Shown here piece after piece: positions 1,524-56,942 of a stretch of DNA of 64,000 nt. Positions within the stretch are counted from its first letter, which is position 1; every line of letters starts with the position of its first letter. This stretch comes from an uncultured Candidatus Saccharibacteria bacterium. GTDB lineage: Bacteria; Patescibacteriota; UBA1384; XYA2-FULL-43-10; 1-14-0-10-43-13. The stretch covers positions 17,192 to 81,191 of the forward strand of contig CAZGWE010000003.1 of assembly GCA_964529405.1 (NCBI GenBank), read 5' to 3'. Below the pieces are notes generated by a model that was given only the letters and a program-made list of their open reading frames with translations, was not told the origin of the DNA and did no database searches. Both the position numbers and the translations under genes were made by a program.

Positions 1524-2522
1524 ATGCTTAACGGTAAAACGATTTTAATCACCGGCGGTACCGGTTCTTTCGGTAAAAAATTTACCGAAAGAATCTTTGC
1601 CGAATATAAACCGAAAAAGATCATCATTTACTCCAGGGACGAGTATAAGCAGTACATAATGCGGCGCCAGTACGCCAAGTATGATGAGCGGTTGCGCTTT
1701 TTCATCGGCGATGTCCGGGACAAAGAAAGGCTTTGGCGGGCGCTCAACGGCGTTGACATTGTTATCCATGCCGCAGCGCTTAAACACGTGCCGGTGGCGG
1801 AGTATAATCCGCTCGAAGCAATTAAAACCAATATCCATGGCGCCGAGAATGTTATTGATGCCGCTCTGGATCGCAACGTCAAAAGGGTCGTTGCTCTCTC
1901 AACAGATAAGGCAGTTAATCCGATCAATCTTTATGGCGCCACCAAGCTGGTCTCCGATAAACTTTTTGTCTCGGCTAATGCTTACTCCGGCCGGAATGGC
2001 ACAGTCTTTTCAGTTGTCCGTTACGGCAATGTCGCCGGCAGCCGCGGTTCGGTTATTCCCTACTTTAAATCATTGATTGAGGCCGGCGAAAAAGTTATTC
2101 CCATTACCGATTTTAGGATGACCAGATTTTTAATTACTCTAAACCAGGGCGTTGATCTGGTTTTCCGGGCTTTAAGCGAAGCCAAGGGCGGCGAAATTTA
2201 TGTCGCTAAAATTCCCTCGATTAAAGTAGTAGATTTGGCCCGGGCCATGCATGAACAGGTCGAATTGAAAGAAATCGGTATCAGGGAAGGTGAAAAACTG
2301 CACGAAGTTATGATCACGGAAGAGGATTCCCGCTCCACCCACGACTATGGCGACCACTTTATTATCTACCCCAACCTGGATTGGTGGAAACCGGAAGCTC
2401 GCTGCAAGCCCGGCAGCCAAAAAGTTAAGGATGGTTTCCGCTACTCCTCCGATCTCAACGACCATTGGCTCGGCGTTGGTGGAATAGCCGAGTTCTTAAG
2501 AACCATTGAAATAGTCTATTGA
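1524..2522 (+). CDS. pseB: UDP-N-acetylglucosamine 4,6-dehydratase (inverting), PseB/FlaA1/CapD-like short-chain dehydratase
   Basis: N-terminal ILITGGTGSFGK Rossmann motif, ~330 aa, and the YGATK catalytic motif, typical of PseB/CapD-type polysaccharide biosynthesis dehydratases. The RBS-like GGGAGC lies upstream. Confidence 0.75.
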   Translation: MLNGKTILITGGTGSFGKKFTERIFAEYKPKKIIIYSRDEYKQYIMRRQYAKYDERLRFFIGDVRDKERLWRALNGVDIVIHAAALKHVPVAEYNPLEAIKTNIHGAENVIDAALDRNVKRVVALSTDKAVNPINLYGATKLVSDKLFVSANAYSGRNGTVFSVVRYGNVAGSRGSVIPYFKSLIEAGEKVIPITDFRMTRFLITLNQGVDLVFRALSEAKGGEIYVAKIPSIKVVDLARAMHEQVELKEIGIREGEKLHEVMITEEDSRSTHDYGDHFIIYPNLDWWKPEARCKPGSQKVKDGFRYSSDLNDHWLGVGGIAEFLRTIEIVY

Positions 2523-2531
2523 GGCATCGTT

Positions 2532-3692
2532 ATGTCTAATCTTATCCCTTATGGGAGACAGTGGATTGACCAGGACGATATTCAAGCCGTCACCACAGTT
2601 TTAAAAAGTGATTATCTGACCCAAGGTCCCAAAGTCGAAGAATTTGAAAAAGCTCTTTGCGACTACACGGGGGCAAAATTTTGCCTTGCTCTTTCTAACG
2701 GCACGGCCGCGCTGCATTTGGCTGTCGCTGCCATGAAGATCGAGAAAAGCATGGAGGGAATTACCTCGCCCATCACCTTCGCCGCCTCCGCCAACTGCCT
2801 GCTCTATAACGGTCTAAAACCGGTTTTTGCCGATATTGATCCTAAAACCTATACGATTAGCCCGGATGAAATTAAAAAGAAGATTACCGCAAAAACCAAG
2901 GTGATAATTCCGGTCGATTTTGCCGGCCAACCAGCCGAGATGGAACAGATCTCCAAGATTGCCAGAGAAAAGGATATCTGTGTCGTTGAAGATGCCGCCC
3001 ACGCCATTGGCTCGCGGTATAATGACGGAAATCATGTCGGTTCGTGTAAATATTCCGATATGACTATTTTTTCCTTCCATCCGGTTAAGACAATCACCAC
3101 CGGCGAGGGTGGAGCAATTACAACTAACAATAGAGAGCTATACAAACATTTGCTATTGTTACGTTCCCACGGTATTACTAAAGATCAGGCTAAACTTGAG
3201 CAAAATCCCGGCCCATGGTATTACGAAATGCAAACGCTCGGTTTTAACTATCGCCTAACCGACATCCAAGCCGCCCTGGGCATCAGCCAATTAAAAAGAC
3301 TTGATAAGTTTGTTGAAAAACGGCGGGAAATTATCCGAAAATACAACAAGGCTTTCAAAGACCTGCCCGATATGGTTGTCCCTTATGAAAAAGATGGCGT
3401 CTTCTCTGCTTTCCATCTCTATGTTTTGCAAATTGATTTTAAAAAAATCGGCACAAGCCGCGAAGAGATAATGGCCAAATTAAGAGAAAAAAATATCGGC
3501 ACGCAGGTTCACTATATCCCCGTTCACCTACAGCCATATTACAGAAACAACTTTGGCTACAAACCAGGCGATTATCCGATTGCTGAACAATATTATGAAA
3601 AAGCAATCAGCCTGCCGCTCTATCCAAAAATGTCTGACTCCGATGTCAAATACGTTATAGAAAATTTCAAACGCGTCTTAGGTGGAAAGTAA
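2532..3692 (+). CDS. pseC: DegT/DnrJ/EryC1-family PLP-dependent sugar aminotransferase (PseC-like)
   Basis: 386 aa. The N-terminus (IPYGRQWIDQDD...) and overall length fit UDP-4-keto-6-deoxy-sugar aminotransferases. It lies immediately downstream of the pseB-like gene with a 9-nt spacer. Confidence 0.75.
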   Translation: MSNLIPYGRQWIDQDDIQAVTTVLKSDYLTQGPKVEEFEKALCDYTGAKFCLALSNGTAALHLAVAAMKIEKSMEGITSPITFAASANCLLYNGLKPVFADIDPKTYTISPDEIKKKITAKTKVIIPVDFAGQPAEMEQISKIAREKDICVVEDAAHAIGSRYNDGNHVGSCKYSDMTIFSFHPVKTITTGEGGAITTNNRELYKHLLLLRSHGITKDQAKLEQNPGPWYYEMQTLGFNYRLTDIQAALGISQLKRLDKFVEKRREIIRKYNKAFKDLPDMVVPYEKDGVFSAFHLYVLQIDFKKIGTSREEIMAKLREKNIGTQVHYIPVHLQPYYRNNFGYKPGDYPIAEQYYEKAISLPLYPKMSDSDVKYVIENFKRVLGGK

Positions 3693-3717: not shown

Positions 3718-4158
3718 GTGATGCCAACAATTTTTATCGGTGCCGACCATGGTGGCTATAAAATTAAAAAACAAGTCAAGCTGTGGCTAAACCAAAAGCT
3801 TATCCCGTTCAATGACCTCGGCGCTGATTCAGAAGATAGCTGCGACTATCCTATATTTGCCCAAAAGGTAGGGCGCGCGGTTGTTGAGAATCAGGGCAAG
3901 GGTATTTTGATCTGCCGAAGCGGCCAAGGCATGTCAATCGCCGCCAACAAGATTAAGGGAATTCGAGCATGCCTTGCTTGGAATCCGGAGGTCGCAATAA
4001 AATCCAGGGAGCACAATGATGCCAATGTTCTATGCTTGCCAGCCGACTATATTAGCAACGACGATAGCGTTAGTATTGTAAAGGCATGGCTTTCTACTCC
4101 ATTTTCTGATGAAATAAGACATATAAAGAGAATCCGGATGTTAGATGAAATAAATTAA
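3718..4158 (+). CDS. RpiB/LacA/LacB-family sugar-phosphate isomerase
   Basis: 146 aa; IGADHGGYKIK N-terminus and ICRSGQGMSIAANK motif characteristic of ribose-5-phosphate isomerase B family. Confidence 0.6.
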   Translation: MMPTIFIGADHGGYKIKKQVKLWLNQKLIPFNDLGADSEDSCDYPIFAQKVGRAVVENQGKGILICRSGQGMSIAANKIKGIRACLAWNPEVAIKSREHNDANVLCLPADYISNDDSVSIVKAWLSTPFSDEIRHIKRIRMLDEIN

Positions 4159-5549: not shown

Positions 5550-6095
5550 TGAACCCACTCTATCGGCTGCAAGCCGATAGGTTCAGCACAGCGCTAAAGC
5601 ACCCTTGCTAATTGGCGTCGAGAATTGTAAAGGAATCACCGCGTTTGTCAGCATCTTCATCTTGATTCTCGATGTATTCCATGATCATTTCATCAGTAAT
5701 GTTTCCGGAGGATACGGCGCAGTAGCCTCTTCCCCACAGATGCTGTCCCCAAAACTGTTTGTTTAATTGAGGGAATTCCTGCAGTAGCTTTCTTGATGTT
5801 TTACCCTTGATATATTGTGAGATTTTGGAGATAGATATTTGCGGGGGATAAGAGATAAAGATGTGGATGTGATCCTTGCTTATATGACCGCGGATTATTT
5901 CAATGTTATGAGCGTCGCAGACTTCACGGATTAAATCCCTGACCCTGATGCCCACCTTATTGGTTAATATTGGTTTACGATATTTGGTCGCCCATATCAG
6001 ATGACACTTTATGTCAAATTGTGTATGAGAACCATTGCGATATATTTGCATAGCCAGAGTATACCATCTTGAAAGGATCGGCTAAAGCCGAGGGG
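5550..6095 (-). mobile_element. IS200-type (tnpA-only) insertion sequence with matching subterminal hairpins
   Basis: Imperfect palindrome TGAACC-CACT-CTATCGGCT-GCA-AGCCGATAG-GTTCA at 5550-5587 and a related hairpin GGATCGGCTAAAGCCGAGG at about 6074-6092 share the ATCGGCT/AGCCGA stem. They flank tnpA as expected for IS200/IS605 LE/RE. No tnpB is present. Confidence 0.6.
5608..6051 (-). CDS. tnpA: IS200/IS605-family transposase TnpA (Y1 HUH transposase)
   Basis: 147 aa; HIHIFISYPPQ HuH motif, KYRKPIL, and catalytic-Tyr-region SQYIKGKTSRKLL, typical of IS200 TnpA. Confidence 0.85.
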   Translation of the reverse strand: MQIYRNGSHTQFDIKCHLIWATKYRKPILTNKVGIRVRDLIREVCDAHNIEIIRGHISKDHIHIFISYPPQISISKISQYIKGKTSRKLLQEFPQLNKQFWGQHLWGRGYCAVSSGNITDEMIMEYIENQDEDADKRGDSFTILDAN

Positions 6096-6162: not shown

Positions 6163-7056
6163 TTGACAGCTAAAGGCCTTATCCGATTAAATGGTTCTAT
6201 GAACAAACTAGCCTTAGGCACGGTTCAATTTGGACTCGATTACGGCATCAACAACAAAGTCGGAAAAGTACCCGAGAGCGAGGTCTTTGCTATTTTGGAT
6301 TATGCCAAAAAAATTGGTATTAATACTTTGGATACTGCCTCGAGCTATGGCGAAAGCGAGAAAGTCCTTGGACAATACTTTGTCAAGAGAGGATCTGATA
6401 ATTTACAGATTGTCTCCAAATTCGCTGAAGCAGCGAATGTCTTATCTGACATTAAAACATCACTGCAAAACTTGAAGACAAACAGGCTTTACGCTTACCT
6501 GCTTCATCACTTTGAATCTCTGAAGCAACAACCCGACCTTTACAAAGAAATGGTTAAATTAAGAGAAGAAGGTTTAACGCAAAAGATTGGCTTCTCTCTC
6601 TATTATCCCCATGAACTACAATATTTACTGGATCGCTCCATCCCCTTTGATCTTGTTCAAGTGCCCTATAACATTTTCGATCAACGTTTCCTGCCCTACT
6701 TTGCCAAACTAAAAAAGGAAGGCAAAGAGATTCATGTCCGTTCAGCCTTTCTACAGGGATTAATTTTTAAAAATCCAAGCGATATACCCCCCTATCTGCA
6801 AGACATGAAGAAAAAACTTGAAAAACTACACCAACTTTCCTTGGAAAGTGAAATTCCTTTAGCAGCCATGGCTCTTAACTTCTGTACTAGCAACCCCTAT
6901 ATCGGCAAGGTAGTCATTGGCGTTGACAGCCTCAAGAATTTGCAGGATAATTTCTCTGATCTATCCCACCAGCAAGCCGTCGTCAACCTCATATCCGAAC
7001 TATTAGGACTTAGAGAAGATAATGAAGAACTAATTTTGCCAATCAACTGGAAATAG
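6163..7056 (+). CDS. aldo/keto reductase family oxidoreductase
   Basis: LALGTVQFGLDYG ... DTASSYGESE motifs of AKR superfamily; start uncertain (ATG 6163 or 6199). Confidence 0.7.
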   Translation: MTAKGLIRLNGSMNKLALGTVQFGLDYGINNKVGKVPESEVFAILDYAKKIGINTLDTASSYGESEKVLGQYFVKRGSDNLQIVSKFAEAANVLSDIKTSLQNLKTNRLYAYLLHHFESLKQQPDLYKEMVKLREEGLTQKIGFSLYYPHELQYLLDRSIPFDLVQVPYNIFDQRFLPYFAKLKKEGKEIHVRSAFLQGLIFKNPSDIPPYLQDMKKKLEKLHQLSLESEIPLAAMALNFCTSNPYIGKVVIGVDSLKNLQDNFSDLSHQQAVVNLISELLGLREDNEELILPINWK

Positions 7057-7072
7057 TCTTTGGATCTAAACT

Positions 7073-9157
7073 ATGGATATTATTGCAATTATTCAAGCCA
7101 GAGTCGGTTCGACCCGCTTACCTAATAAAGTTCTTTTACCATTGGGTGGCAAAACTGTACTCGAGCAGGTTGCGAGCCGAGTCGGCAGAAGCAAGCTTAT
7201 CAACAAGGTAATGGTCGCCACGACTACAAATAGTGACGATGACGCTATTGTTGAAATATTAGAAAAAGCTGGAATAGAGAGTTTCCGCGGCTCTGAAAAT
7301 GACCTTCTTGACCGCTATTACCAAGCAGCCAAACTTCATAAGCCAAAACATATAGTTAGAATCACGGCCGACTGTCCTCTAATTGATTCCGACGTCATTG
7401 ATGCAGTGATCAGTCTTCATCTTAAGGACAAAAATGATTATACTGCAAGCGCTTTCGTTGAAACCTTTCCGGATGGTCTTGATGTTGATGTAATGACCTT
7501 TAAGGCTCTTGAGGAAAGCTGGAAAAATGCCACCATTCCCTATCAAAGAGAGCACGTCACTCAATTCATCGCCAAAAATCCCCATCGGTTCAAAATAGGC
7601 AATCACTATCATACCGAGAACCTGTCTGATAAGCGATGGTGCATGGACGAACCCAATGATTATGCTTTCGTCGAGGCTGTTTACAGCGCGCTTGGGGCCG
7701 AGCGGGACTATTTCGGAATGGAAGATGTTTTGCGCTTCTTGTCGGCTAATCCAGATGTAGAAAAAATCAATCAAAACATCATCCGGAACGCCGGCATCTT
7801 AAAATCGACTGGCGCCGAGGCTGATTTGTTATTAGAAAGGAAAACGATGAGAACCGGACAAAATCTCTACAAGCGCGCCAAGGGCATTATTCCCGCCGGC
7901 ACGCAAATTCTTTCCAAGCGGCCGGAGCTGCACCTGCCAGGAGGCTGGCCCTCCTACTACAAGAAGGCCAAAGGCTGCGAAATCTGGGATATGGATGGCA
8001 AAAAATATGTTGATATGAGCTATATGGGTATTGGCGCCTGCGCTATCGGTTACGCCGACCCCGATATTGATAAAGCCGTTAAAAAAACTATCGACAACGG
8101 TATTGCCGCTACATTTAATTCACCAAAGGAACTCGAGCTGGCCGATATGCTTTTGGAGCTGCACCCATGGGCAGATATGGTTCGTTATGCTTGCGGCGGC
8201 GGCGAGATTATGGCTATTGCCATCAGAATTGCCCGGGCCAAATCCGGCAAGGACAAGGTGTTGTTTTGCGGCTATCACGGCTGGCACGATTGGTACTTAA
8301 GCTCCAACCTTGCTGACGATAAGGCGCTTGACGGCCACCTCTTACCCGGTCTGAAACCGCTCGGCGTACCACGCGCCTTAAAGGGTACGGCCATGCCATT
8401 TATGTACAACGATACCGAAGCTTTCTTGAAGTTAGCCAAGAAGCACAAAGGTGAAATCGGTGCTGTTGTCATTGAAGGTATGAGGAGTTATGAACCAGTA
8501 AAGGGTTTTTTGGAAACTATCAGAAAAGTAACCAAAGAGGAAAAAATTCCATTTATTATTGATGAAGTCTCATCAGGTTTTCGCTTGACCACCGGCGGCG
8601 CTCATATAAAGCTGGGCATTAAGCCAGATATGGCAGCCTTCGCTAAAGCTCTGGGTAACGGCTATCCAATTGCCGCCGTTATTGGCAAAAAAGAGGTCAT
8701 GGATGTGGTTGAGGACTGTTTTATTAGCTCAACCAACTGGTCAAATAATGTTGGCTTTGCTGCTGCTATCGCATCCTTGAAAAAGATGAAGGAGAAGCAC
8801 GTTGTCGACCATTTAATTAAGATGGGTAAAAAGGTGCAAGACGGCTGGGCAAAGATGGCTAAAAAAAACGGAGTTAATATTCACCTCTCCGGATTCTATG
8901 CCATTGGCCACTTTGATTTTGAATATGAAAATCCGCTAGTCTTAAAAACCCTCTTTACTCAAGAGATGTTAAAGCGAGGTTTCCTGGCAACCAACGCCTA
9001 CTACGCTTCGTATGCCCACAAAACCAAGCACATTAAAGCGTATTTAGAAAAGTGCGACGAGGTCTTTGCCATTGTTGCTGAAGCTATCAAATCAGGCAAG
9101 CCGGAAAGTTATTTAGAAGGGAATATCTGCCATGCCGGATTTAGAAGACTCACCTAG
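7073..9157 (+). CDS. bifunctional fusion: N-terminal acylneuraminate/CMP-sugar cytidylyltransferase-like (SpsF/PseF-like) domain + C-terminal class-III aminotransferase (glutamate-1-semialdehyde aminomutase-like)
   Basis: The N-terminus IIQARVGSTRLPNKVL ... ITADCPLID matches the CTP_transf_3 family. The C-terminal half (GWPSYYKKAKGCEIWDMDGKKYVDM ... GYHGWHDWY ... DEVSSGFR) matches HemL-like class-III PLP enzymes. Confidence 0.65.
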   Translation: MDIIAIIQARVGSTRLPNKVLLPLGGKTVLEQVASRVGRSKLINKVMVATTTNSDDDAIVEILEKAGIESFRGSENDLLDRYYQAAKLHKPKHIVRITADCPLIDSDVIDAVISLHLKDKNDYTASAFVETFPDGLDVDVMTFKALEESWKNATIPYQREHVTQFIAKNPHRFKIGNHYHTENLSDKRWCMDEPNDYAFVEAVYSALGAERDYFGMEDVLRFLSANPDVEKINQNIIRNAGILKSTGAEADLLLERKTMRTGQNLYKRAKGIIPAGTQILSKRPELHLPGGWPSYYKKAKGCEIWDMDGKKYVDMSYMGIGACAIGYADPDIDKAVKKTIDNGIAATFNSPKELELADMLLELHPWADMVRYACGGGEIMAIAIRIARAKSGKDKVLFCGYHGWHDWYLSSNLADDKALDGHLLPGLKPLGVPRALKGTAMPFMYNDTEAFLKLAKKHKGEIGAVVIEGMRSYEPVKGFLETIRKVTKEEKIPFIIDEVSSGFRLTTGGAHIKLGIKPDMAAFAKALGNGYPIAAVIGKKEVMDVVEDCFISSTNWSNNVGFAAAIASLKKMKEKHVVDHLIKMGKKVQDGWAKMAKKNGVNIHLSGFYAIGHFDFEYENPLVLKTLFTQEMLKRGFLATNAYYASYAHKTKHIKAYLEKCDEVFAIVAEAIKSGKPESYLEGNICHAGFRRLT

Positions 9158-9698
9158 CCAAATTAAAACCAAACTTAAGGCCGAATTTAAGACTGTTGGC
9201 ACTCGCCCAAAATCACCTCTCGAATCCTTTGACGGGATCGTTGTTCTGTCTGCCGAAGAGACAGATATCTCCGGCGAAAATAAGGAACGTCTTTTAGCCG
9301 GTCTTAACCTTATGGTCAAGATAAAAACGGGCGGCAATTTTATTTTCCTTGGCACCAAAATCCACAACGCCGGCGCAGAGAATTATATCTTGCAAAACCA
9401 CCCCGATATTGAGGCAAACTTTCCCGCTAAACGGAAAGAGGCCTCAACCAGAACGCAGATAAAGGACCTTTCAGCCTTTCTGCATAAAAAACCTCTCTCA
9501 AAGCTTTTGATAGTCTCGCAAGCCTATCACATACCGCGCATTGACCGTTACTGCCAAAGATATATGCCGGATCAATTATATGATGTCTCTCCGGTCGGCG
9601 ATATTAAATCATACGCCAAACAAGTTGAAGTCGAAATTAATAAGATCATCAAATACGCCGGCCAGGGGGACCTGGATCTTTTTCTAACGCACAATTAA
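9132..9698 (+). CDS. DUF218 (YdcF/SanA-like) domain protein
   Basis: 188 aa; IVVLSAEE ... SQAYHIPR resembles the DUF218 signature (xYHMxRA). Overlaps upstream gene by 26 nt. Confidence 0.35.
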   Translation: MPDLEDSPSQIKTKLKAEFKTVGTRPKSPLESFDGIVVLSAEETDISGENKERLLAGLNLMVKIKTGGNFIFLGTKIHNAGAENYILQNHPDIEANFPAKRKEASTRTQIKDLSAFLHKKPLSKLLIVSQAYHIPRIDRYCQRYMPDQLYDVSPVGDIKSYAKQVEVEINKIIKYAGQGDLDLFLTHN

Positions 9699-11825: not shown

Positions 11826-12953
11826 TTAATCCTCGAAATGACCGGTCGTTAATGGCTCTCGGGCTTTGATCGGTTTTCTAATCTTTCGACCTCGAAATAG
11901 ATGGAAGTTTTTTGGTTCGATTCCGCCCCAAGGACGCAAAGAGATAATTTTATCCTCTGTCACAATGTCGCCAGGCTTCATATCAGCAGCCGCATAAATA
12001 GAGCGTCTGGACCAACGGTCAAATATCTCATCACCTTTGTGCCCCGGCTTGGAAACCGGTTGTTTGATGCCGCCGCCGGAAAGCGCCGCTTCGGTGTTGC
12101 GAACCTCTTTAACAAAACGTTGAAATTCAGACACTTCCATTGAATTTGGGTCGTCATTACTACCACCCTCTCGCTCGTCGGTAATATGTTTTTCAATAAC
12201 GCATGCACCGAGCGCCACTGCCGCGATTGAAGCAGCGATATATGGGGGTTCGGAATGGTCAGAGTAGCCAACCGGTAATTTAAAAGCCTCTCTCAAAGTT
12301 GTGACGGCACGCAGGTTTAGATCAGAGAATTCCGGCGGATACATTGAAATGCAATGCATCAAAACGATCTGATTATTGCCAGCATCTCGGATAACTTTGA
12401 CAGCATGCGCCACCTCCTCCAAGTCAGCCATACCAGTAGAGAGAATAATCGGACGACCCTTCCCGGCAATATGAGTTAACAGAATATCATCAACGAGTTC
12501 ATAAGAACCAACTTTATAAGCACCGACATTAGCTTCGTCCAAGATATCAACCGCCTCTTTATCAAAGGGAGTCGAGAGGAAGATAATGCCAATCTTTTTG
12601 GCATAAACCGCAAGTTTATCTGTCCACTCGTACGGCATTTCAGCTGATTTAAAGAAACCGGAGAGCGTACCAACATTCTTGCCATTCCAATTATCAAAGA
12701 CTTCTACATCGGCGGCGATCTTATCGTGAGTTATGTGTTGAAATTTGACTACATCCGCACCTGCTTCTTTGGCTTTATCAATCAACTTGTAAGCATTGTT
12801 GATATCACCTCTATGGTTAGCGCCAACTTCCGCAATAATTAAAGTTGGCTGTCCATGACCGATAAGCCGGTCTCCAATTTTGATTGTCTCTAACGGTTCA
12901 AAATTCAGCTGTTTCGGTAAACTTTTATAAAATTTATCTCTTTCTTTGCCCAT
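11826..12953 (-). CDS. N-acetylneuraminate/pseudaminic acid synthase family (NeuB/PseI-like) with C-terminal SAF domain
   Basis: 375 aa; TLIIAEVGANHRGD, GADVVKFQ, ILSTGM, VGYSDHS motifs of NeuB TIM-barrel; C-terminal SAF-like tail. Confidence 0.8.
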   Translation of the reverse strand: MGKERDKFYKSLPKQLNFEPLETIKIGDRLIGHGQPTLIIAEVGANHRGDINNAYKLIDKAKEAGADVVKFQHITHDKIAADVEVFDNWNGKNVGTLSGFFKSAEMPYEWTDKLAVYAKKIGIIFLSTPFDKEAVDILDEANVGAYKVGSYELVDDILLTHIAGKGRPIILSTGMADLEEVAHAVKVIRDAGNNQIVLMHCISMYPPEFSDLNLRAVTTLREAFKLPVGYSDHSEPPYIAASIAAVALGACVIEKHITDEREGGSNDDPNSMEVSEFQRFVKEVRNTEAALSGGGIKQPVSKPGHKGDEIFDRWSRRSIYAAADMKPGDIVTEDKIISLRPWGGIEPKNFHLFRGRKIRKPIKAREPLTTGHFED

Positions 12954-13312: not shown

Positions 13313-14551
13313 ATGGGCAACACTAATAATAAAACCATACTTTTACTTGGCGCAGGAGCCGAACAACAGATCGCGATCGAGCTGGCAAAGGAGATGGGAT
13401 ATCGCGTGGTGGCTGCTGACGGCAATCCCAAAGCTCCCGGACTGGCTCTGGCCGATGTCGCCATTGCCGATGACATTAAAAATATTGAAAAGATGATTGA
13501 GGTCGGCAAAAAGCACAAAGTTGATGGGGTAATGACCCATGGGGTCGAAATCCCCCACATCATCTCTCGAATAGCCAAGGCCCTAAACTTACCGGGAATC
13601 GATCCGGAGATTGCCGACCGGACTACGTTTAAATCGGAGCGCATTAAGTATTTAAAAAGGGCCGGCATCAATGTCCCGGAATTTGTGGCTGTTAAGACCG
13701 TAAGCGAGGCTAAAAAGGCTGCTAAAAAGATCGGTTATCCGGTCGTAATCAAGCCGACGGATAACGCCGGTGCCAGGGGCGTAAAAGTTGTCAATAACGC
13801 CGCTGAACTCGAAAAGGCCTTTAACGAATCGCTTGGCTACTCCCATAACCGGGAGATTCTAATTGAACAACTGCTAAGCGGATTAGAGATCAGCACCGAG
13901 TCGTTGGTTTATAACGGCAAAATCTACACCACCGGCTTTGGGGATCGGAACTACTCAAGGAACATTGAATTTTATCCTTATTTTGTTGAGGATGGCCACA
14001 ATGTCCCCTCCGCCCTGCCGGCCGAAACCCAGAGAAAGATTATCTCCGAAGTCGAAAAGACAATCCGGGCCCTTGGTATTACCTGGGGCGTTGCTAAAGG
14101 CGATATCCTGGTAAACAAGAGCGATGACAAGGTTTATGTTCTTGAAATGGCCTCGCGGACCAGCGGAGGCTGGTTCTGCGCCGGCACCGTACCCCTGGCC
14201 ACCGGCGTCCACATTCTGAAACCCCTGATTAAAATGAGTGTTGGCGACCCTGTTGATGAAAACGACCTTAAACCAACCAAAGATCTGGCTGCCTGCCAAA
14301 GATATGTTATTCCAAGCCGTGACGGTACATTTATTAGAATTGAAGGTGTCAAAAAGGCCGGAAAGATGCCTGGAGTGGAGATGCTGGTGATATTCAAGCA
14401 ACCCAAGCGGGGCGAGTTAATCCACAAATCGACCAACCATTCGGAGAGGTTCGGCCAATTAATTGCTGTTGGCAAGGATGTGAAAGACGCCACCAAGAAG
14501 TGCGAAGAAGCCATCAGTTGTATCAGGGTGGTACTGGGTAAGGTTGAATAA
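13313..14551 (+). CDS. ATP-grasp domain enzyme (carboxylate-amine ligase-like)
   Basis: 412 aa; TILLLGAGAEQ pre-ATP-grasp, GYPVVIKPTDNAGARGV and LVLEMASR ATP-grasp motifs. Confidence 0.6.
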   Translation: MGNTNNKTILLLGAGAEQQIAIELAKEMGYRVVAADGNPKAPGLALADVAIADDIKNIEKMIEVGKKHKVDGVMTHGVEIPHIISRIAKALNLPGIDPEIADRTTFKSERIKYLKRAGINVPEFVAVKTVSEAKKAAKKIGYPVVIKPTDNAGARGVKVVNNAAELEKAFNESLGYSHNREILIEQLLSGLEISTESLVYNGKIYTTGFGDRNYSRNIEFYPYFVEDGHNVPSALPAETQRKIISEVEKTIRALGITWGVAKGDILVNKSDDKVYVLEMASRTSGGWFCAGTVPLATGVHILKPLIKMSVGDPVDENDLKPTKDLAACQRYVIPSRDGTFIRIEGVKKAGKMPGVEMLVIFKQPKRGELIHKSTNHSERFGQLIAVGKDVKDATKKCEEAISCIRVVLGKVE

Positions 14552-14573: not shown

Positions 14574-15458
14574 ATGGATTCAAGACAAAGAGAGAAGCTA
14601 AGAAAATATTTTGCCCAAGACCTTGGTTGGGGCTGGGCCAGAAATTATCAGGCGAAGAGAGTCTTTGATTTTCTGATTGAGGCTGCCGACTTCTGCCGAG
14701 GAGGAATTGTTCTCGATGCAGGCGCCGGACATCAACGTTACCGGCCATTTTTTGATCAATCACTCTATCTGTCCCAGGAACATGAAAGCGGTGTCAACTT
14801 TAAAGGCATGAACAATATCAACTACGACCTTATCAGTCCGGTTGATGTCAAAATACCACTTAAAGACAATTGTTTAGACGGAGTACTATCAACTTCTGTC
14901 ATTGAGCATATGGAGAATCCCCGAGAGTTCTGCAAGGAAGCTTATCGGGTGCTGAAACCGGGCGGCAAGCTGTTTATTAATGTGCCCTTCTCTATCATCG
15001 AGCACGAAAGACCATTCGATTTTACCCGGCCTACGCGCTACGCCTTGAAAAAATGGATGGAAGAGGCCGGTTTTAGTGATTTCCTGATTGAGCCATCGTC
15101 CTCCTGCACCGAAACAGTCTGCAATGTGCTGCCCATAACCGTTTACTGCGACTTTTTACAAACAGACCAGGGCTACAAAAAAAATTTGGCTGAAAATTTT
15201 GCCAGCTCTAAAAACATAATCGTAAAGCTATATTATACTTTCAGGGTTTTTGTGGCTGCTATCCTCTATCTAGCCACCAAAATACTAAGCTTTCTCTTAA
15301 AACTGTTAATTGACCGCGGACCATACGATAAGGCGCTGTTGCCGGTTGGCTGGATTGTTGTCGCCACTAAACAAGGCAAGATAACGCAAAATAGCAAAAC
15401 ACCGGATCGAAAAACTTTCTTGGCCAAGTTTGCCCTAGCCGATAAAAAGACAAGATGA
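14574..15458 (+). CDS. class I SAM-dependent methyltransferase with C-terminal membrane helix
   Basis: VLDAGAGHQ, IEHMENP, LKPGGKLFINVP motifs; hydrophobic C-terminal segment. Confidence 0.6.
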   Translation: MDSRQREKLRKYFAQDLGWGWARNYQAKRVFDFLIEAADFCRGGIVLDAGAGHQRYRPFFDQSLYLSQEHESGVNFKGMNNINYDLISPVDVKIPLKDNCLDGVLSTSVIEHMENPREFCKEAYRVLKPGGKLFINVPFSIIEHERPFDFTRPTRYALKKWMEEAGFSDFLIEPSSSCTETVCNVLPITVYCDFLQTDQGYKKNLAENFASSKNIIVKLYYTFRVFVAAILYLATKILSFLLKLLIDRGPYDKALLPVGWIVVATKQGKITQNSKTPDRKTFLAKFALADKKTR

Positions 15459-16438
15459 ATATTCAGAAACTCATCGAAAGCTATCTCGACATGGAGGCAT
15501 ATGGCAGCAATATTATTATCAAGGAATATTGCCGATTTCCCAAATGCCTTCCCTTGCCTTGCCATATGGAACATGGCTGGACTCCGATTCCCAATGCTCT
15601 GGTTACGGATTTAGTTATTGCCAGCAAGAAAAATATTATGCTGGTTTTCAGTGATCGGCGATTAAAATTTTGGCAAAAAGCCAGCAAGGTTCCGGTTTAT
15701 GTTATTGGCGCACCGTTCGTTCACTATCGCCGGATGGCCAACATTACCCCAAACCCAAAATCTCGAGGTACCATAGTTTTTCCAAGTCATTCAACGATCT
15801 TTTTGCAAAGCCAATACAATATCGATGAATACTGCAACAAACTGAAAAATCTACCCATGAAATTTCATCCAATTACTATCTGCTTACTCTACCCCGATAT
15901 CAAATTAGGTCGGGATAAGGAGTATCGAAAACGCGGCTTCAAGGTGGTCTCGGCTGGAAGAAAATTACGGGGCAGTAAAAAATTTCCGTTTAACTTTTAT
16001 AAAATTCTCGCCAACCACAAATATGCCACCTCAAACGAAATAGGCACATATACTTTTTATTCGATTGAGTTTGGCCTGCCATTCTTTCTGTCTGGCGATG
16101 AGCCAACAGTCGTTAACATTGGCGACAAAGATCCCAACAGCCATGGCAGTGGAAAAAATAGCGATTATGCCTTGGGCAAAAAGGTATTTGATTTATTCAA
16201 TGTTGGGACAAATGCCGTCATTACACCCGAGCAGCAGCAGCTAGTTAAAGACGAACTTGGCATAGAAAATCACATCGACCCCAAAAAGCTAAATAAGATA
16301 CTCTGGTCCAACACCAGAAATTTGCGTTATTGGCTAAAGTACGTACCAATGTACTGCCTGTTAACTTTTATTAAATTTGTCATCCCGCAAAATCTTGCTT
16401 ACTGGATTATTGAACGCAAGAACAAAAAGCCTGCTTGA
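15455..16438 (+). CDS. hypothetical protein (possible glycosyl/sialyl-transferase-like)
   Basis: 327-aa complete ORF with a 4-nt overlap with the upstream gene (operon-like). No motif I can name. Context only. Confidence 0.3.
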   Translation: MNIQKLIESYLDMEAYGSNIIIKEYCRFPKCLPLPCHMEHGWTPIPNALVTDLVIASKKNIMLVFSDRRLKFWQKASKVPVYVIGAPFVHYRRMANITPNPKSRGTIVFPSHSTIFLQSQYNIDEYCNKLKNLPMKFHPITICLLYPDIKLGRDKEYRKRGFKVVSAGRKLRGSKKFPFNFYKILANHKYATSNEIGTYTFYSIEFGLPFFLSGDEPTVVNIGDKDPNSHGSGKNSDYALGKKVFDLFNVGTNAVITPEQQQLVKDELGIENHIDPKKLNKILWSNTRNLRYWLKYVPMYCLLTFIKFVIPQNLAYWIIERKNKKPA

Positions 16439-16645: not shown

Positions 16646-19531
16646 ATGATGCCTTTCAGAGCGGAAAGTATCAAGCTGATATTTCGAGGAGGGGTTTTAG
16701 GATTATGGAGTTACTCTTCGTTTCTTTTTTTTTATGTTATTCTAAATCTTAATTACGTCCTGGCTGCCCTGTCCGGCCTGGTTGTTTATTGGCTCTTTGA
16801 CCTCCTGCTGTCGCAGCACGAACAACATTCTATCCAAAAGATTACATCTAAATTACTTTTAATACCGGCGGGTCTCTTTGTTGTCTGGGGGCTGGTCGGT
16901 CGTCTTAGCTTCTCCCCTGTTTTTGCCAACGCTCTGGTTGTCCTGCTGTTTTTAGCGGGCTATTTTGTCGGACCTGTTTATTACGAAGCCAGAAAAAAGG
17001 AAATCGACTTTCTGTTCTATCGTTACCGCTTTGTCTTAAACTACTGTCTGATTGGTTTTGGCTCAATTGTTTTAGAGTTAATAATCGCTACCACCCTAAA
17101 CCGATTTCTTAATCTCAACGTGATGCTTGGCAGCGTCATCGGCTTTATCTTTGGCGTTCTCTTCAGCTACATCCTTAATTCAAGGTTGAACTTTCAGGTA
17201 CCTAAGAAAAAGAGCGTCAAAACCTTTAAAATGTTTGCTCTCATCTCTCTTTTCAGTTATTCGCTTAGCATAATCCTGCTGCAATTGATCAGCAGCGTTA
17301 TGGACTTTGAATATTTCTATCTTCGCTTTTTAATTGCCGGTGTCCTCTTTGCCATCGGCTATACTTTACATCGCCGCTACACTTTTACCGACATTAAGTA
17401 TGTTGGCGTTGCCCTTTACCTCGACCCAAAAGAGAGCACCGACGATGTCTGGAACAAGATCCAGGATTACCCCGACTTCATCCACATCGACTTGGTTGAC
17501 CAGACCTATAACCCCAAATTCACGCCGGAGAACATTGATGTCAGCAAAGGTTACGACATCAAGTCTAAGTGGTTCGGCATCAAAACCATGACGCACGTTA
17601 TGTCCAAGTTCCCCTCCAAGTGGATCTCTGAAATTGCCGGCTTCTCCGACGTTATTATTGTCCACTATGAAATCGAAGAGAGTCTGAATGAGGTTATTGA
17701 AAGCATCAAAAAACTGAATAAGAAGGTTGGATTATCGATTCTCTACTCGACCGATATTGAATTAATCCGGCCATATCTCAAAGAAATGGACGTGGTTCAG
17801 GTCTTAGGTATTGCCCAACCGGGCATGTCCGGCCAGTTCTTGCAAAAAACCGCTCTGGAGCGATTGGTTAAACTCAATGCGATCAAGAAAGATTACAGTT
17901 TCGAGATTTGTTTTGACGGCGGTATCAAGCGCGAAAATATTGACAGCATCACCGCTAAATACGTCGTCTCGGCTTCCTCAATTTTGAACGCCAACGATCC
18001 GGTCAACGCCATCTTTGACTTAAAAACCAGCTCCCGCTACTTCTCGCAACGGGCATCGCTTAAAGATTTCCTCTCCAAGCGGATTTTAAACATAGGCGAG
18101 AACGAGCCTTCCATTGCCTCGATCAACATTGTCGGCTCATTTTCCGAAAAAGATGACCTCTCCGGCATCAGCGATATCGATATCGTTATCATTGCTGACG
18201 AACTCAACAAGGAAAAGTACGCCGATATCGTCAACCAGTTTAACCTGCTCAAGGAACAGATCGAGACCGACTACAGCTTGAGAGCCAAGATTAATGACAC
18301 CTTTGGCCCGCTCAAGTTTGACGACCGGTACGACGTCGTTCTGCACCTCATGATTTATGACACCAGGGGCCATCTTGACCACTGTGTCAAAAGCCCTTTC
18401 ACCGTCCTCGACTGGGAGAGAAGCCGGATGTATGCCAAGAAACCGATGAAAGAGATTATTGCCACCTTAAAACCCCAGCCCAACCAGCTGATGAGCTCGC
18501 GAAGAAGTCTTGACAGCTACTTGCGGGATCTGCGGCAGGGCAACATTACCTACCGCCAATATTCATTTAACGGATCAGAAAAAACACTGCAAGAGATTGC
18601 CAAGACCAAGAGAATGGCCGGCAAAGACAAGGTTGAATACGCCTTTCATATTATGAAGTTTATGATTTTGAATTTTATGAAGATCTACTCCGGCCAAAAT
18701 ATGCGCTTCTCCGAGGAGGTGATACAAAGTTTCTTCGGTCTGACCGATATGAACCGTAAATATCTGTCGCTTTTTAATGAATTGCACCGCAGAAAGTTGA
18801 ACAAAAGGACGGAGATCAGCGAGGAGGAGATCTGGCAATTACAGCTCTTCCTGCTGGAGTTTAAGATGGTTTTCGAAAAGGTCTTCCATCTGATGGGCAA
18901 AAGCGTCATTCTGATGCGCCACGCCCAAACCGAGTTAAACAAGAAAAAGGTCTTTCTGGGCCAACGGCATGATCCGGATATTATCACCGAGCCGATTAAG
19001 GACAAGATTGCCTCACTGTCCTCGTCTTTATCCGATATCGATATTGTTTACTCCTCTCCAATGCGGCGGGCACTGGAAACGGCCCGGCTGGTTAACAAAC
19101 CGCTCAAGCGCGAGATGGTGGTCAACTACGACATCAATGAGATAGACTATGGCGATATCGACGGCCAAGAGTTTGCTTATCTATTTAAAAATTATCCCGA
19201 TATTGTTAAAGCTTGGGAGAGGGGCGAGGATCCCAAGTTCCCCAACGGCGAAAATTACGCCGACCTTCTGGAGCGCCTGGACCGGTTCTGGCAATCGCTT
19301 CAAGAAAGAAATGACCGATGGTGCGGCAAGATCCTGGTTGTAACCCACAACGTCATCATGAGGGCAGTCGCCGGCCGGTCGCTGGGCATACCGCAGAAAT
19401 ATTGGCATAAAATCAACATTGACCATTTAGAAACCTTCGAACTTTTTATGGCCGGGAACGGTATTATACATTTGAATCTTGAGGGTGACCAGATCGCTAA
19501 AATATATTATAATATTTATACCAATGATTGA
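16646..19531 (+). CDS. four-part fusion: GtrA-like membrane N-domain + ribulose-phosphate-3-epimerase-like TIM barrel + Pol-beta-type nucleotidyltransferase + histidine phosphatase (PGM-family)
   Basis: N-terminal polytopic region; the RPE-like segment has IHIDLVDQTYNPKFT, QPGMSGQF and CFDGGIK; the NTase segment has GSFSEKDDLSGISDIDIVII; the histidine-phosphatase segment has ILMRHAQTELN (RHG motif) plus a conserved C-terminal His region. The exact start is uncertain. Confidence 0.5.
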   Translation: MMPFRAESIKLIFRGGVLGLWSYSSFLFFYVILNLNYVLAALSGLVVYWLFDLLLSQHEQHSIQKITSKLLLIPAGLFVVWGLVGRLSFSPVFANALVVLLFLAGYFVGPVYYEARKKEIDFLFYRYRFVLNYCLIGFGSIVLELIIATTLNRFLNLNVMLGSVIGFIFGVLFSYILNSRLNFQVPKKKSVKTFKMFALISLFSYSLSIILLQLISSVMDFEYFYLRFLIAGVLFAIGYTLHRRYTFTDIKYVGVALYLDPKESTDDVWNKIQDYPDFIHIDLVDQTYNPKFTPENIDVSKGYDIKSKWFGIKTMTHVMSKFPSKWISEIAGFSDVIIVHYEIEESLNEVIESIKKLNKKVGLSILYSTDIELIRPYLKEMDVVQVLGIAQPGMSGQFLQKTALERLVKLNAIKKDYSFEICFDGGIKRENIDSITAKYVVSASSILNANDPVNAIFDLKTSSRYFSQRASLKDFLSKRILNIGENEPSIASINIVGSFSEKDDLSGISDIDIVIIADELNKEKYADIVNQFNLLKEQIETDYSLRAKINDTFGPLKFDDRYDVVLHLMIYDTRGHLDHCVKSPFTVLDWERSRMYAKKPMKEIIATLKPQPNQLMSSRRSLDSYLRDLRQGNITYRQYSFNGSEKTLQEIAKTKRMAGKDKVEYAFHIMKFMILNFMKIYSGQNMRFSEEVIQSFFGLTDMNRKYLSLFNELHRRKLNKRTEISEEEIWQLQLFLLEFKMVFEKVFHLMGKSVILMRHAQTELNKKKVFLGQRHDPDIITEPIKDKIASLSSSLSDIDIVYSSPMRRALETARLVNKPLKREMVVNYDINEIDYGDIDGQEFAYLFKNYPDIVKAWERGEDPKFPNGENYADLLERLDRFWQSLQERNDRWCGKILVVTHNVIMRAVAGRSLGIPQKYWHKINIDHLETFELFMAGNGIIHLNLEGDQIAKIYYNIYTND

Positions 19532-20135
19532 GTATTTTATCGCCCTGACTCCCGAGCAACAGCTCTACAAAAAGATTGAATCGGTTAAGTCTTATGTTTT
19601 CGAGAACTTTGGCGACCAAGCTTATTTGCTTGACCCGCCCCACTCCACCCTCTGTGTCGGCACGACCGGTAATATCAAAGAAACTAACCGAGAGCTAGAA
19701 AAATTCACCGAGACAAACAAAAGGGTCGGTTTTGGAATAATCGATTGGCTCATCTTCGCCAATGACAAAGTGACAAAATCGTCATCACTGGTTTTGAGGT
19801 TTGATGAAAATTGCATCAAATCCCTTAGGCAGGTTCAAGCCGGAGTTCTGGATGCCGTCGCACCGTCGAGAAGCAAGGCGTGCGCAAAGAGGTATAAGAG
19901 CGTTAAATTTTCGCCAGTCGAGAAGCAAAATTTAATAAGCTTCGGCTTTCCCTATGCCGGCGAGATCTGGATCCCTCACATCGGCATCTGCGCTATGTCC
20001 GATGAACACATCGCCGATGTCAAGACAAAATTTGATATCAAAGACTTTAGCCAGCCAAGCTGTTTCGACCGGATTTCTTTATATAAACTTGAGAGCGAAA
20101 AACCAATATTAATTAATTCGTTTGATCTACTATGA
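19524..20135 (+). CDS. hypothetical protein, weak 2H-phosphoesterase-like features
   Basis: PHSTL and PHIGI resemble degenerate HxT/S motifs. The longer track ORF overlaps the upstream gene, so the start is taken at the internal MIEYF. Confidence 0.25.
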   Translation: MIEYFIALTPEQQLYKKIESVKSYVFENFGDQAYLLDPPHSTLCVGTTGNIKETNRELEKFTETNKRVGFGIIDWLIFANDKVTKSSSLVLRFDENCIKSLRQVQAGVLDAVAPSRSKACAKRYKSVKFSPVEKQNLISFGFPYAGEIWIPHIGICAMSDEHIADVKTKFDIKDFSQPSCFDRISLYKLESEKPILINSFDLL

Positions 20136-20836
20136 AACATCAATTGTTAAAAAAAATGGTCTGGCAAGCTAATCGGGCGCTATCTGGTTCCGGTTTGATT
20201 ATTTTAACCTGGGGCAATGCCAGCGCTTACGATCGTGAAGCGGGCGTAATTGCTATCAAACCAAGCGGTGTTTCTTACGCCGAGATGAAAGTTGACGATA
20301 TCGTCGTACTTGATATCGAGGGTAAAATTATTGATGGTAATAAAAAACCGAGCGTCGATACGCCAACGCATTTAGAAATTTACCGCAGCTTTCCAGCTAT
20401 TAACGGTATCGTCCACACCCACTCACTCCACGCCACCGCCTTCGCCCAGGCCGGCACACCGATTGAATGCCTCGGCACAACACACGCCGACCACTTTTAC
20501 GGCCGTATTCCGGTGGCCAGAAAGTTATTGAAAAGAGAAATGGACGCCTATGAAAAAAACACCGGCAAGGTCATCGTTGAATTATTCCGCCAAGAGCAAC
20601 TCGATCCGCTTCATGTTCCGGGCTGTCTGGTGGCCGGCCACGGCGTCTTTACCTGGGGCAAGAGTGCTGATGACGCAGTCAATAATGGGATTGTTGCCGA
20701 GTTTCTGGCTAAGGCGAATCTGGCAACTTGCACTATTAACAACAAGACAGTGAAACTGCCTAAGCACATTCTGGAAACCCATTTTTTAAGAAAACATGGT
20801 AAAAATAGCTATTATGGACAAGGAGAAAAGAAATGA
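20132..20836 (+). CDS. class II aldolase/adducin-family protein, L-ribulose-5-phosphate 4-epimerase (AraD)-like
   Basis: 234 aa; IKPSGV, VHTHS, GHGVFTWG motifs of AraD/FucA family; 4-nt overlaps on both sides (operon). Confidence 0.7.
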   Translation: MKHQLLKKMVWQANRALSGSGLIILTWGNASAYDREAGVIAIKPSGVSYAEMKVDDIVVLDIEGKIIDGNKKPSVDTPTHLEIYRSFPAINGIVHTHSLHATAFAQAGTPIECLGTTHADHFYGRIPVARKLLKREMDAYEKNTGKVIVELFRQEQLDPLHVPGCLVAGHGVFTWGKSADDAVNNGIVAEFLAKANLATCTINNKTVKLPKHILETHFLRKHGKNSYYGQGEKK

Positions 20837-21594
20837 TTAATTTGATTCCAATGGCCGGACTTGGCAACCGCTTTGCCGCCGCCGGCTATACCACCCCAAA
20901 AGCCTTAATTCCGATTTCCGGCAAACCGATGATTTTACGCGTAACTGAAATGATGCCCAAAGCCGATAAGTGGGTCTTTGTTTTGCGAAAGGAGCATGTC
21001 GACAAGTACCAAGTTGACGAGGCGATCAAGAAAGAGGTGCCCAACAGTGAATTTATTATTATCGATTACAACACCGAGGGCCAGCTTTCAACCTGCTTGT
21101 TAGCCGAAAAGTATATCAACAACGATGAGGAGCTGTTTATCGGCGCCTGCGACCACGGCTTTCTCTGGTCGGAGAAAAAGTTTAATTCGCTGCGCAAAAA
21201 ATATGACGTGGTACCCTGGGTTTTTACCAAACAGAAAACCCTCTCCGATAACCCGACCGCCTGGGGCTGGGTCAAAACCGATAAAGCGGACAACGTCTTA
21301 GGTGTCTCGGTCAAAACGCCTATCAGCGATACTCCCTTTGACGATTACGCTATCACCGCCGCTTTTTATTATCGCACCGGCAAGATTTTCCTTGATATCG
21401 CCAATAAAGTTATAGCCGATGATACCAGAATTAAAGGTGAATTTTATGCTGACACAACTATTGATTACGCCCCAAAGATGAATTACAAGACCAAAGCCTT
21501 TGTGGTTGATAAATATTTGAGTTGGGGCACCCCACGAGACTACGAAGAGTTCCTCTTCTGGCAAGAAGTATTTGGAAAAGTAAAGTTCATGTAA
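20833..21594 (+). CDS. sugar-phosphate nucleotidyltransferase (MobA/LicC-like NTP_transferase)
   Basis: The N-terminus LIPMAGLGNRFAAAGYTTPKALIPISGKPMI is a G-rich nucleotide-binding loop typical of sugar nucleotidyltransferases. Confidence 0.6.
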   Translation: MINLIPMAGLGNRFAAAGYTTPKALIPISGKPMILRVTEMMPKADKWVFVLRKEHVDKYQVDEAIKKEVPNSEFIIIDYNTEGQLSTCLLAEKYINNDEELFIGACDHGFLWSEKKFNSLRKKYDVVPWVFTKQKTLSDNPTAWGWVKTDKADNVLGVSVKTPISDTPFDDYAITAAFYYRTGKIFLDIANKVIADDTRIKGEFYADTTIDYAPKMNYKTKAFVVDKYLSWGTPRDYEEFLFWQEVFGKVKFM

Positions 21595-34435: not shown

Positions 34436-34462
34436 AAAATTCCTCTTCGTCTTATGTTTAAG

Positions 34463-34553
34463 GGTTGCGAAGCCCGTTTCGTTTAGCGTTATTCGGCTAC
34501 GGTTCAAGATGAACGACGTAACCGCCTAACGATACGGGCATTGTTACCGTAGC
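34463..34553. repeat. MITE-like repeat, copy B (rmlD-rmlB intergenic)
   Basis: GGTTGCGAAGCCCGTTTCG ... GATACGGGCATTGTTACCGTAGCC. Confidence 0.7.
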
Positions 34554-34562
34554 CCATTGATA

Positions 34563-35609: not shown

Positions 35610-35624
35610 ATGACCACCAGATTT

Positions 35625-36176: not shown

Positions 36177-36198
36177 AACTCCCCTGACGAAATTATCA

Positions 36199-36282: not shown

Positions 36283-36291
36283 GCGAAGTTA

Positions 36292-56897: not shown

Positions 56898-56942
56898 CTT
56901 GGTATATTTTTGGTACAACTATTGCAGGGAGAACAAACGCCA

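Follow-up and report, generated by a model that had tools for sequence, protein, structure and literature searches.

The 64,000-nucleotide stretch of contig CAZGWE010000003.1 analyzed here (the window), from an uncultured Candidatus Saccharibacteria bacterium, encodes a cytidylyltransferase (CT) fused to a class-III aminotransferase (AT) in a putative gene cluster for a nonulosonic acid (NulO). The evidence points to a very widespread pathway variant, in which the PseF step is replaced by a cassette of an oxidoreductase, an SpsF-type CT and a class-III AT. On balance, we think it somewhat probable that the fusion protein is a bifunctional enzyme that, together with the oxidoreductase, activates a pseudaminic acid (Pse)-like NulO with cytidine 5'-monophosphate (CMP) and turns a hydroxyl into an amine by way of a keto group.

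The Fused Reading Frame and Its Two Domains

The fusion occupies one ATG-initiated open reading frame (ORF) at 7073..9157 on the + strand. It translates without interruption into 694 amino acids (aa), the length given in an initial annotation of this DNA, and ends in ...GFRRLT*; the product is 100% identical to database protein P0001. Both halves match Pfam models above their cutoffs, which bears out the two-domain anatomy described in that annotation. CTP_transf_3 (PF02348) covers aa 4-203 (E 1.2e-31, 110.6 bits, cutoff 22.6), and Aminotran_3 (PF00202) covers aa 295-607 (E 4.5e-43, 147.9 bits, cutoff 30.5). With these E-values in a single 2.1-kb ORF and more than 100 full-length homologues, a chance coincidence of the two domains is excluded. 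The two-domain fusion is genuine as an architecture.

The protein consists of an SpsF-type CT domain (aa 1-239; 7073..7789, +), which ends in an RNxG..KS motif and matches PF02348 and Protein Data Bank (PDB) entry 6oew, and a class-III pyridoxal phosphate (PLP) aminotransferase domain (aa 259-694; 7847..9157, +) that matches PF00202 and resembles glutamate-1-semialdehyde (GSA) aminomutase (GSAM). They are connected by a linker (aa 240-258; 7790..7846, +), seen in an AF2 (AlphaFold2) model and in an alignment of 26 fused homologues (A1), which is also the basis for the invariant CT and AT residues given below. The AF2 model, computed from the 26-sequence alignment, has a pLDDT of 88.1 and a pTM of 0.67 and contains two well-folded domains bridged by a helix at aa 240-258, where the pLDDT is ~68-74. 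A Foldseek comparison with the PDB matched the AT half alone and found no solved structure with both domains.

The CT Domain

The sole close solved relative of the CT domain is 6oew, deposited as 'cytidylyltransferase', which aligns over aa 4-236 with an E-value of 3e-43; structures of KdsB reach ~1e-4 at best. Homologues of the domain carry the JGI name 'SpsF (cytidylyltransferase family)'. The PseF equivalog model TIGR03584 scores 27.7 bits against a cutoff of 205.7 and matches the N-terminal 70 residues alone, the KdsB equivalog TIGR00466 scores 40.8 bits (cutoff 155.2), and the best KdsB-like subfamily models score 69 bits (cutoffs 193-255). Judged by these matches, the domain is a member of the SpsF/6OEW clade and not of the PseF family, though it sits in the PseF slot. 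The label 'SpsF/PseF-like' of the initial annotation therefore holds for SpsF and fails for PseF at the family level.

Residues Arg-15, Pro-17, Lys-19, Asp-100 (in DCP), Pro-102, Asp-192 and Asp-196 are invariant. By analogy to KdsB, we take the R..K pair of GSxRLPxK, the DCP motif and the acidic motif VDxxxD to be involved in CTP/Mg binding. The domain shares PF02348 and the RLPxK, DCP and VDEPxD motifs with PseF, NeuA, KdsB and SpsF, and in its relatives it takes the place of PseF between PseC and PseG. It differs from PseF and KdsB in that it fails both equivalog models, is fused to an aminotransferase and has a C-terminal extension, RNEGxxKSL. This extension, RNEG(Y/L)xKSL, ends the CTs that are partnered with an AT, whether fused or split, and is missing from second SpsF-like CT copies that lie beside modules of a GFO/IDH/MocA-type oxidoreductase (GFO), a DegT aminotransferase and a GNAT acetyltransferase. 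The confinement of the tail to AT-partnered CTs suggests that contact between CT and AT predates the fusion. For SpsF of B. subtilis, genetics show a need in NulO transfer and not in synthesis (PMC7439481).

The AT Domain

The best NCBIfam match of the AT half is PRK06209 (GSA-aminomutase-like), which covers aa 257-693 with 259.5 bits and stays below its cutoff of 486. The PLP lysine is Lys-525, in ...AAFAKALGNGYPIAAV; its codon lies at 8645..8647 (+), and it aligns with the catalytic lysine of GSAM in 'tlgkiigggl'. Lys-525, which would form the Schiff base, and Asp-497, the pyridine-nitrogen aspartate, are invariant and align with Lys-273 and Asp-245 of GSAM. The string 'FSAF/ALGNGYPIAAV' given for this region in the initial annotation is slightly garbled in its letters; the motif and the lysine are present. 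As Arg-15, Lys-19, Asp-100, Asp-192, Asp-196, Asp-497 and Lys-525 are all invariant, both halves of the protein look active.

GSAM structures match the AT half with E ~1e-47, and the Foldseek matches include GSAM, FumI (TMt 0.88), GenB3/GenB4 and PctV. The relatives include transaminases that act on aldehydes or ketones free of a carboxylate (FumI, GenB3/GenB4 and GntE); the GntE-type model NF041362 marks a relative only, at 244.2 bits against a cutoff of 525. The HemL models likewise remain far under cutoff: TIGR00713 scores 196.4 (cutoff 527.3), PRK00062 213.7 (cutoff 398) and PRK12389 175.7 (cutoff 637). With HemL the domain shares the class-III fold, the PLP lysine and aspartate, and ~26-30% identity over ~350 residues. 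In contrast to HemL, it has low model scores, an unaligned C-terminal substrate region, a longer loop, a GF(K/R)RL tail and a glycan context. Alignment with GSAM is lost near residue 362 of the domain and does not reach the substrate-specific residues in the C-terminal third of GSAM. The loop that follows CGYHGWHDWY, in the gating-loop region, is longer than that of GSAM and has an invariant signature of its own, LDGHLLPGLxPxGVP. The C-terminal tail GF(K/R)RL is invariant in fused and split forms alike, and split AT genes begin with M-x-(K/R)-G-Q at the position of Met-259.

Recurrence of the Fusion

The 120 best matches from a 5.8-billion-protein database were examined. Both Pfam domains are present in 116 of them, at lengths of 665-881 aa (mostly ~675-720 aa) and identities of 45-64%, and the fused homologues come from many phyla of bacteria and archaea (Woesearchaeota). 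A pattern scan in which each species was represented by a single genome gave at least 600 matches, among them isolates or finished genomes of Moorena bouillonii, Neptuniibacter caesariensis MED92, Marinobacter persicus, Synechococcus MIT S9452 and Ca. Njordibacter. Cassette carriers among the matches listed are Prochlorococcus, Synechococcus, SAR11, Patescibacteria, Acidobacteria and methanogens. Related genomes, where the initial annotation had advised looking for the fusion, thus carry it, as do unrelated ones. The architecture is not new, being abundant in databases under names such as 'aminotransferase class III-fold…' and 'glutamate-1-semialdehyde 2,1-aminomutase', and the window gene taken alone is a modest result, a further member of an existing, automatically annotated family.

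To survey gene states, ORFs were called and clustered in 85 sequences, which comprised 84 loci and the first 24 kb of the window. A fused ORF is present in 42, adjacent split CT and AT genes in ~17-20, and a reordered AT-AKR-CT arrangement, where AKR is an aldo/keto reductase, in 8. Among those with split genes are Flintibacter muris and metagenome-assembled genomes (MAGs) of Methanoregula, Woesearchaeota and Patescibacteria, the last (locus L017) being the closest species representative. A neighbor-joining tree of the AT domain requires at least four changes between the fused and unfused states, with the fused state in at least four separate clades. In this tree, split relatives surround the window and locus L081 (protein P0002, 64% identity), which pair together and are both fused.

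Larger fusions also occur. A 1028-aa GFO-CT-AT triple fusion is found in three genomes of Acidobacteria (L058:8957-12046, L065:8960-12046 and L067:8960-12046), and P0059, an 881-aa protein from an ENA metagenome, combines CT (aa 4-206), GNAT (aa 271-428) and AT (aa 481-799). In L057 a GFO-CT-AT arrangement appears to be broken by a frameshift.

The Oxidoreductase-CT-AT Cassette

Gene context was counted in 79 related loci, all 79 of which have a glycan-cluster setting. NeuB is present in 57, PseB in 54, PseC in 46 and PseG in 34, and the L081 locus is syntenic with the window. The commonest gene order is PseB-PseC-AKR-[CT-AT]-PseG-(PseH)-PseI. The canonical order is pseB-C-F-G-H-I, and the match between the two places the AKR and the CT-AT in the PseF slot. 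PseG directly follows the fusion in L022, L006 and L004, and its scores as the next gene are 238-326 bits (cutoff 153.55) for Moorena, Marinobacter and a Rhodocyclaceae MAG. A PseF-like CT occurs in only 7 of the 79 loci.

In 58 of the loci, the CT or AT has an NAD(P) oxidoreductase no more than two genes away. It is an AKR in 44, a GFO/IDH/MocA protein in 12 and a short-chain dehydrogenase/reductase (SDR) in 3. The GFO type sits exactly where the AKR would be, and scores best with models for inositol 2-dehydrogenase and UDP-GlcNAc 3-dehydrogenase, both dehydrogenases of secondary sugar alcohols. The catalytic tetrad of the AKR (Asp-57/Tyr-62/Lys-86/His-115) is invariant in 49 of 49 family members. 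As far as gene architecture can tell, the varied fusions among oxidoreductase, CT and AT say that the three act together. In the initial annotation, the fusion would channel an amino modification to the CMP-activated sugar. The underlying idea, a single sugar (possibly CMP-activated) as the substrate of both CT and AT, agrees with the conserved cassette and the triple fusions.

A second module, consisting of an SpsF-like CT without the RNEGxxKSL tail, a GFO protein, a DegT aminotransferase and a GNAT protein, is present in L008, L035, L075 and L082 (for example L082:13458-18167). It is apparently a parallel hydroxyl-to-acetamido cassette that uses another aminotransferase family.

Pairs of a dehydrogenase and an aminotransferase are known from other systems: KdnB/KdnA act before KdsB in the formation of Kdo8N in Shewanella, WbpB/WbpE/WbpD form another such set, and 6'-oxidation of aminoglycosides is followed by a class-III transaminase of the GenB/NeoB type. 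By analogy, the cassette would follow the same logic of an oxidoreductase and a PLP transaminase (plus an N-acyltransferase) around nucleotide activation. GenB3/GenB4 are detectable structural relatives of the AT, and the GFO partners resemble UDP-GlcNAc 3-dehydrogenase. The known pairs belong mostly to other enzyme families, whereas here the three activities are variously fused and lie in Pse-type clusters.

Two published loci are closer. In the Pse cluster of Vibrio sp. B9-25K2, which has no NeuA, an SpsF-like CT and an AKR are joined in one protein, proposed by the authors as a substitute for NeuA/PseF (PMC7371886). The window shares with it the CT clade, the slot after PseC and the AKR partner, but the Vibrio protein fuses the AKR and not the AT, and a 'dehydrogenase' follows it. 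The O-antigen locus of Legionella pneumophila Sg6/Sg12 contains PseG, a GSA-aminomutase-like class-III AT, a CT, an acetyltransferase and an aryl-alcohol dehydrogenase (AKR) as separate adjacent genes (PMC3694923). This would be an unfused version of the cassette, accompanied by acetamidino genes of the HisH/HisF type, with functions known from annotation alone. It is also the unfused precedent that we found in place of the one cited in the initial annotation, a HemL-like gene in the flagellin loci of Campylobacter, for which no linking paper was found in the literature searched.

The NulO Cluster of the Window

PseB, the inverting UDP-GlcNAc 4,6-dehydratase (1524..2522, +), scores 529.6 bits with TIGR03589 (cutoff 407.75), and PseC, a DegT-family aminotransferase (2532..3692, +), scores 541.1 bits with TIGR03588 (cutoff 423.5). 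Between PseC and the fusion lie, in order, RpiB, a Wzx flippase, an IS200 transposase on the opposite strand and an AKR. The AKR (6163..7056, +; PF00248, E 4.5e-35) is directly upstream of the fusion and is its proposed redox partner. The gene for a DUF218 protein (9132..9698, +; PF02698, 28.9 bits) shares its first 26 nucleotides (nt) with the 3' end of the fusion, which suggests translational coupling; a DUF218 gene likewise follows the fusion in L081. Two methyltransferases precede the NeuB/PseI-like NulO synthase (11826..12953, -; PF03102, E 1e-79), for which the PseI model TIGR03586 is the best (312.9 bits, cutoff 340.25) and the NeuB model scores 299.2 (cutoff 399.65). An ATP-grasp enzyme resembling L-amino-acid ligases (13313..14551, +) matches ATP-grasp Pfam families and LAL_C2; it is kept beside the fusion in L081 and is a candidate N-acylating enzyme. 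A third methyltransferase follows it.

With PseB and PseC above their NCBIfam cutoffs, the cluster is classed as a variant NulO pathway of the pseudaminic acid type. Among the window ORFs without a Pfam match, no PseG or PseH was found; many related loci do carry these two genes. Given a window without recognizable PseG or PseH, its own pathway would not be the canonical Pse pathway and its product would not be canonical Pse5Ac7Ac.

One of the neighboring ORFs, f31 (15455-16438, +), was considered as a divergent PseG and rejected, with an hhalign probability of 0.1%. It encodes a conserved protein of ~330 aa without a Pfam or NCBIfam match, which is also present at L017:15753-16751, L047:13004-14029 and L081:16221-17177. 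Among the clustered loci the family occurs in these four only, all of which are without a PseG-family gene. The transposase mentioned above is of the IS200/Y1 type (5608-6051, -; PF01797, E 5e-42) and, lying between the flippase and the AKR, separates PseB/PseC from the other NulO genes.

Proposed Function and Alternatives

In the pathway that we propose, PseB and PseC would produce UDP-4-amino-4,6-dideoxy-L-AltNAc, and the NeuB/PseI-like synthase would condense the derived hexose with phosphoenolpyruvate. The CT half would convert CTP and the NulO to CMP-NulO in place of PseF, a role favored by its gene context and by the genetics of B. subtilis SpsF. The oxidoreductase (an AKR here, a GFO/IDH/MocA protein or SDR elsewhere) would oxidize a sugar hydroxyl to a carbonyl, which the AT half would convert to an amine, so that a hydroxyl of the NulO becomes aminated. 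The new amine would be open to acylation or methylation, and the window has the ATP-grasp enzyme and the three methyltransferases. Through fusion, the CMP-sugar, which is labile, or the keto intermediate may be retained between the CT and AT sites. The substrates, the form of the sugar taken by the AT (free or CMP-linked) and the carbon that is aminated are assignments that we infer.

Several points weigh against this proposal. AKRs are usually reductive, and the reverse direction, from amine through ketone to alcohol, fits equally. The pTM of 0.67 is too low for the juxtaposition of the CT and AT domains in the AF2 model to be reliable. PseG and PseH were not found in the window ORFs scanned to ~37 kb with GNAT, Glyco_tran_28_C, TIGR03590 and TIGR03585. 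The seven loci with a PseF-like CT, which include the close relative L017, have it in addition to the SpsF-type CT, so that the latter may not be a simple replacement of PseF. Finally, no study of the AT or of the cassette by biochemistry, genetics or glycan structure turned up in our literature search.

The alternative that survives best, although we regard it as doubtful, is that the CT is a PseF equivalent and the AT acts earlier, either on the hexose or UDP-sugar, where it would add to or stand in for the amination by PseC, or on the free aldose that PseG releases, with the fusion serving co-expression only. A second type of cluster, without PseC and PseG, consists of PseB, an RmlD-like reductase, NeuB, an oxidoreductase, CT and AT (L014, L016, L033, L035, L047 and L082). 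In such clusters the class-III AT could provide the missing amino group, which leaves room for an earlier role. Moreover, the AT relatives GSAM, GntE and GenB prefer aldehydes, and a free aldose is an aldehyde. However, most loci already have PseC, and the AT has fused repeatedly and independently to the CT in particular, which, together with the GFO-CT-AT triples, points to consecutive steps around the CT reaction.

It is unlikely, in our estimate, that the AT performs no net amination and is instead a GSAM-like aminomutase or a PLP epimerase that, with the oxidoreductase, shifts or inverts an amino center to yield a regio- or stereoisomer of pseudaminic acid. Its closest characterized relatives are indeed GSA 2,1-aminomutases, and the class-III fold includes epimerases and racemases, with PDB matches to 9au3 (a 6'-epimerase/aminotransferase) and to amino-acid racemases. 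A PseH-type N-acetyltransferase is absent from several clusters (L003, L008 and L028), which would leave a free amine, and in Acinetobacter extra dehydrogenase modules have been proposed to turn CMP-legionaminic acid (CMP-Leg) into epimers (PMC5595891). The GSAM comparison argues the other way: the substrate-residue region in the C-terminal third is unaligned beyond residue ~362, the gating-loop region is longer and bears its own signature, and all HemL models fall far under cutoff.

More improbable still is an activity of the CT on a phospho- or phosphono-compound made by the AT, giving a CMP- or CDP-linked decoration other than CMP-NulO. Phosphonate pathways contain nucleotidyltransferase-aminotransferase fusions of analogous architecture, and some loci keep a separate PseF-like CT. 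Against this, those CTP_transf_3 enzymes whose function is known take 2-keto-3-deoxy-ulosonic acids as substrates, the nearest CT-domain models are of the KdsB type, the CT-AT co-occurs tightly with NeuB, PseB and PseG with no other CT in most clusters, and genes for phosphonate metabolism or phosphotransfer were not found adjacent to the fusion. A true HemL function of the C-terminal half in 5-aminolevulinate and tetrapyrrole synthesis, which the initial annotation had named as an outcome that would overturn its reading, is ruled out for practical purposes: the top named matches are GSA aminomutases, but TIGR00713 gives 196 against 527, the other two HemL models also fall short, no tetrapyrrole genes were found near the fusion, and every related locus is a glycan cluster.

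Returning to the proposed amination of an activated NulO, a further and more tentative step would be that the cassette makes an undescribed class of NulO. Candidates are Pse-type sugars in which a third amino group has been added (at C4 or C8, for example) or the amino group transposed or inverted, the change being made on the CMP-linked sugar by the physically coupled CT and AT; we consider this possible and no more likely than that. Flagella, pili, capsules and lipopolysaccharide carry NulOs such as pseudaminic acid, which shape recognition by phages and the immune system. If such a class exists, it would be a widespread surface sugar, given the spread of the cassette over Prochlorococcus, Synechococcus, SAR11, Patescibacteria, Acidobacteria and methanogens. 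The identity of the product would define a new route of NulO tailoring and would correct the pervasive mis-annotation 'glutamate-1-semialdehyde aminomutase' in glycan loci. Cultivable carriers are available in Marinobacter, Neptuniibacter, Flintibacter and Moorena.

The Junction and the Origin of the Fusion

The linker is a gap-rich stretch, the least conserved of A1; split relatives have their stop codon and intergenic spacer at this place. In the window the junction reads TTA-TTA-GAA-AGG-AAA-ACG-ATG. A Shine-Dalgarno (SD)-like AAAGGA lies 5 nt before the ATG of Met-259, the ancestral AT start (7836..7849, +; sequence TATTAGAAAGGAAAACGATG). The SD-like motif and ATG may be a relic of the old AT start or may let a free aminotransferase be translated separately. 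At the equivalent site of L017, the CT stop codon TAG is followed by AGGAG and the ATG of the AT gene. The window and L081, both fused, have one additional base just upstream of the L017-type junction. Because this extra base puts the old TAG out of frame, the fusion would have arisen from adjacent CT and AT genes by a frame change of 1 nt, after which the old CT stop was read through. It would preserve a physical CT-AT partnership that probably exists in the split state too.

The initial annotation had raised the alternative of a sequencing artefact. An indel from assembly or sequencing that wrongly joins adjacent CT and AT genes in the contig is very unlikely. It would account for the nearest species-representative genomes, L017 (Patescibacteria), L019 and L021, which have a stop and a frame change at the junction, and relative to these three the window differs by a 1-nt register shift in an A-rich stretch that keeps the out-of-frame TAG, the SD-like motif and the ATG. 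However, independent assemblies at 62-64% identity (P0002, which is L081 and lies on three contigs, P0003 and P0004) are fused and have different linkers, and L081 has the same extra base as the window. Finished genomes also carry fused forms, 116 of the 120 homologues examined are two-domain proteins, and the fused state occurs in at least four clades. The stop codon that the initial annotation anticipated in relatives if two genes were involved is seen in L017, L019 and L021, and is absent from the equally close P0002, P0003 and P0004. The presence of both split and fused states among close relatives means that the junction is polymorphic and not an error.

Other Features of the Window

The nearest relatives of the cluster genes are in Patescibacteria MAGs. 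GC content is ~0.40-0.51 and uniform in 4-kb bins, with no foreign signature for the cluster. An Rfam scan gave two tRNAs only, both distant from the locus.

Glycan synthesis takes up ~35 kb of the window. A 961-aa four-domain ORF (16646-19531, +) combines a GtrA membrane domain, a ribulose-phosphate 3-epimerase, NTP_transf_2 and a histidine phosphatase. It is accompanied by RpiB (3718-4158), an AraD-like L-ribulose-5-phosphate 4-epimerase (20132-20836; 318 bits, cutoff 257), NTP_transf_3 (20833-21594) and a second GtrA (21649-22059), and together these look like a module for a sugar derived from pentose phosphate. Downstream of the NulO cluster lie a complete dTDP-rhamnose operon, rmlD-rmlB-rmlC-rmlA (33494-37017, -), and several GT2 glycosyltransferases.

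Further along, the window encodes a large protein with a C-terminal T4SS_pilin domain (49101-52235), a PilB-type ATPase (53036-54700, -) and DnaA (56910-58343). The cumulative GC skew has its minimum at ~56-60 kb, and the window therefore probably spans the replication origin.

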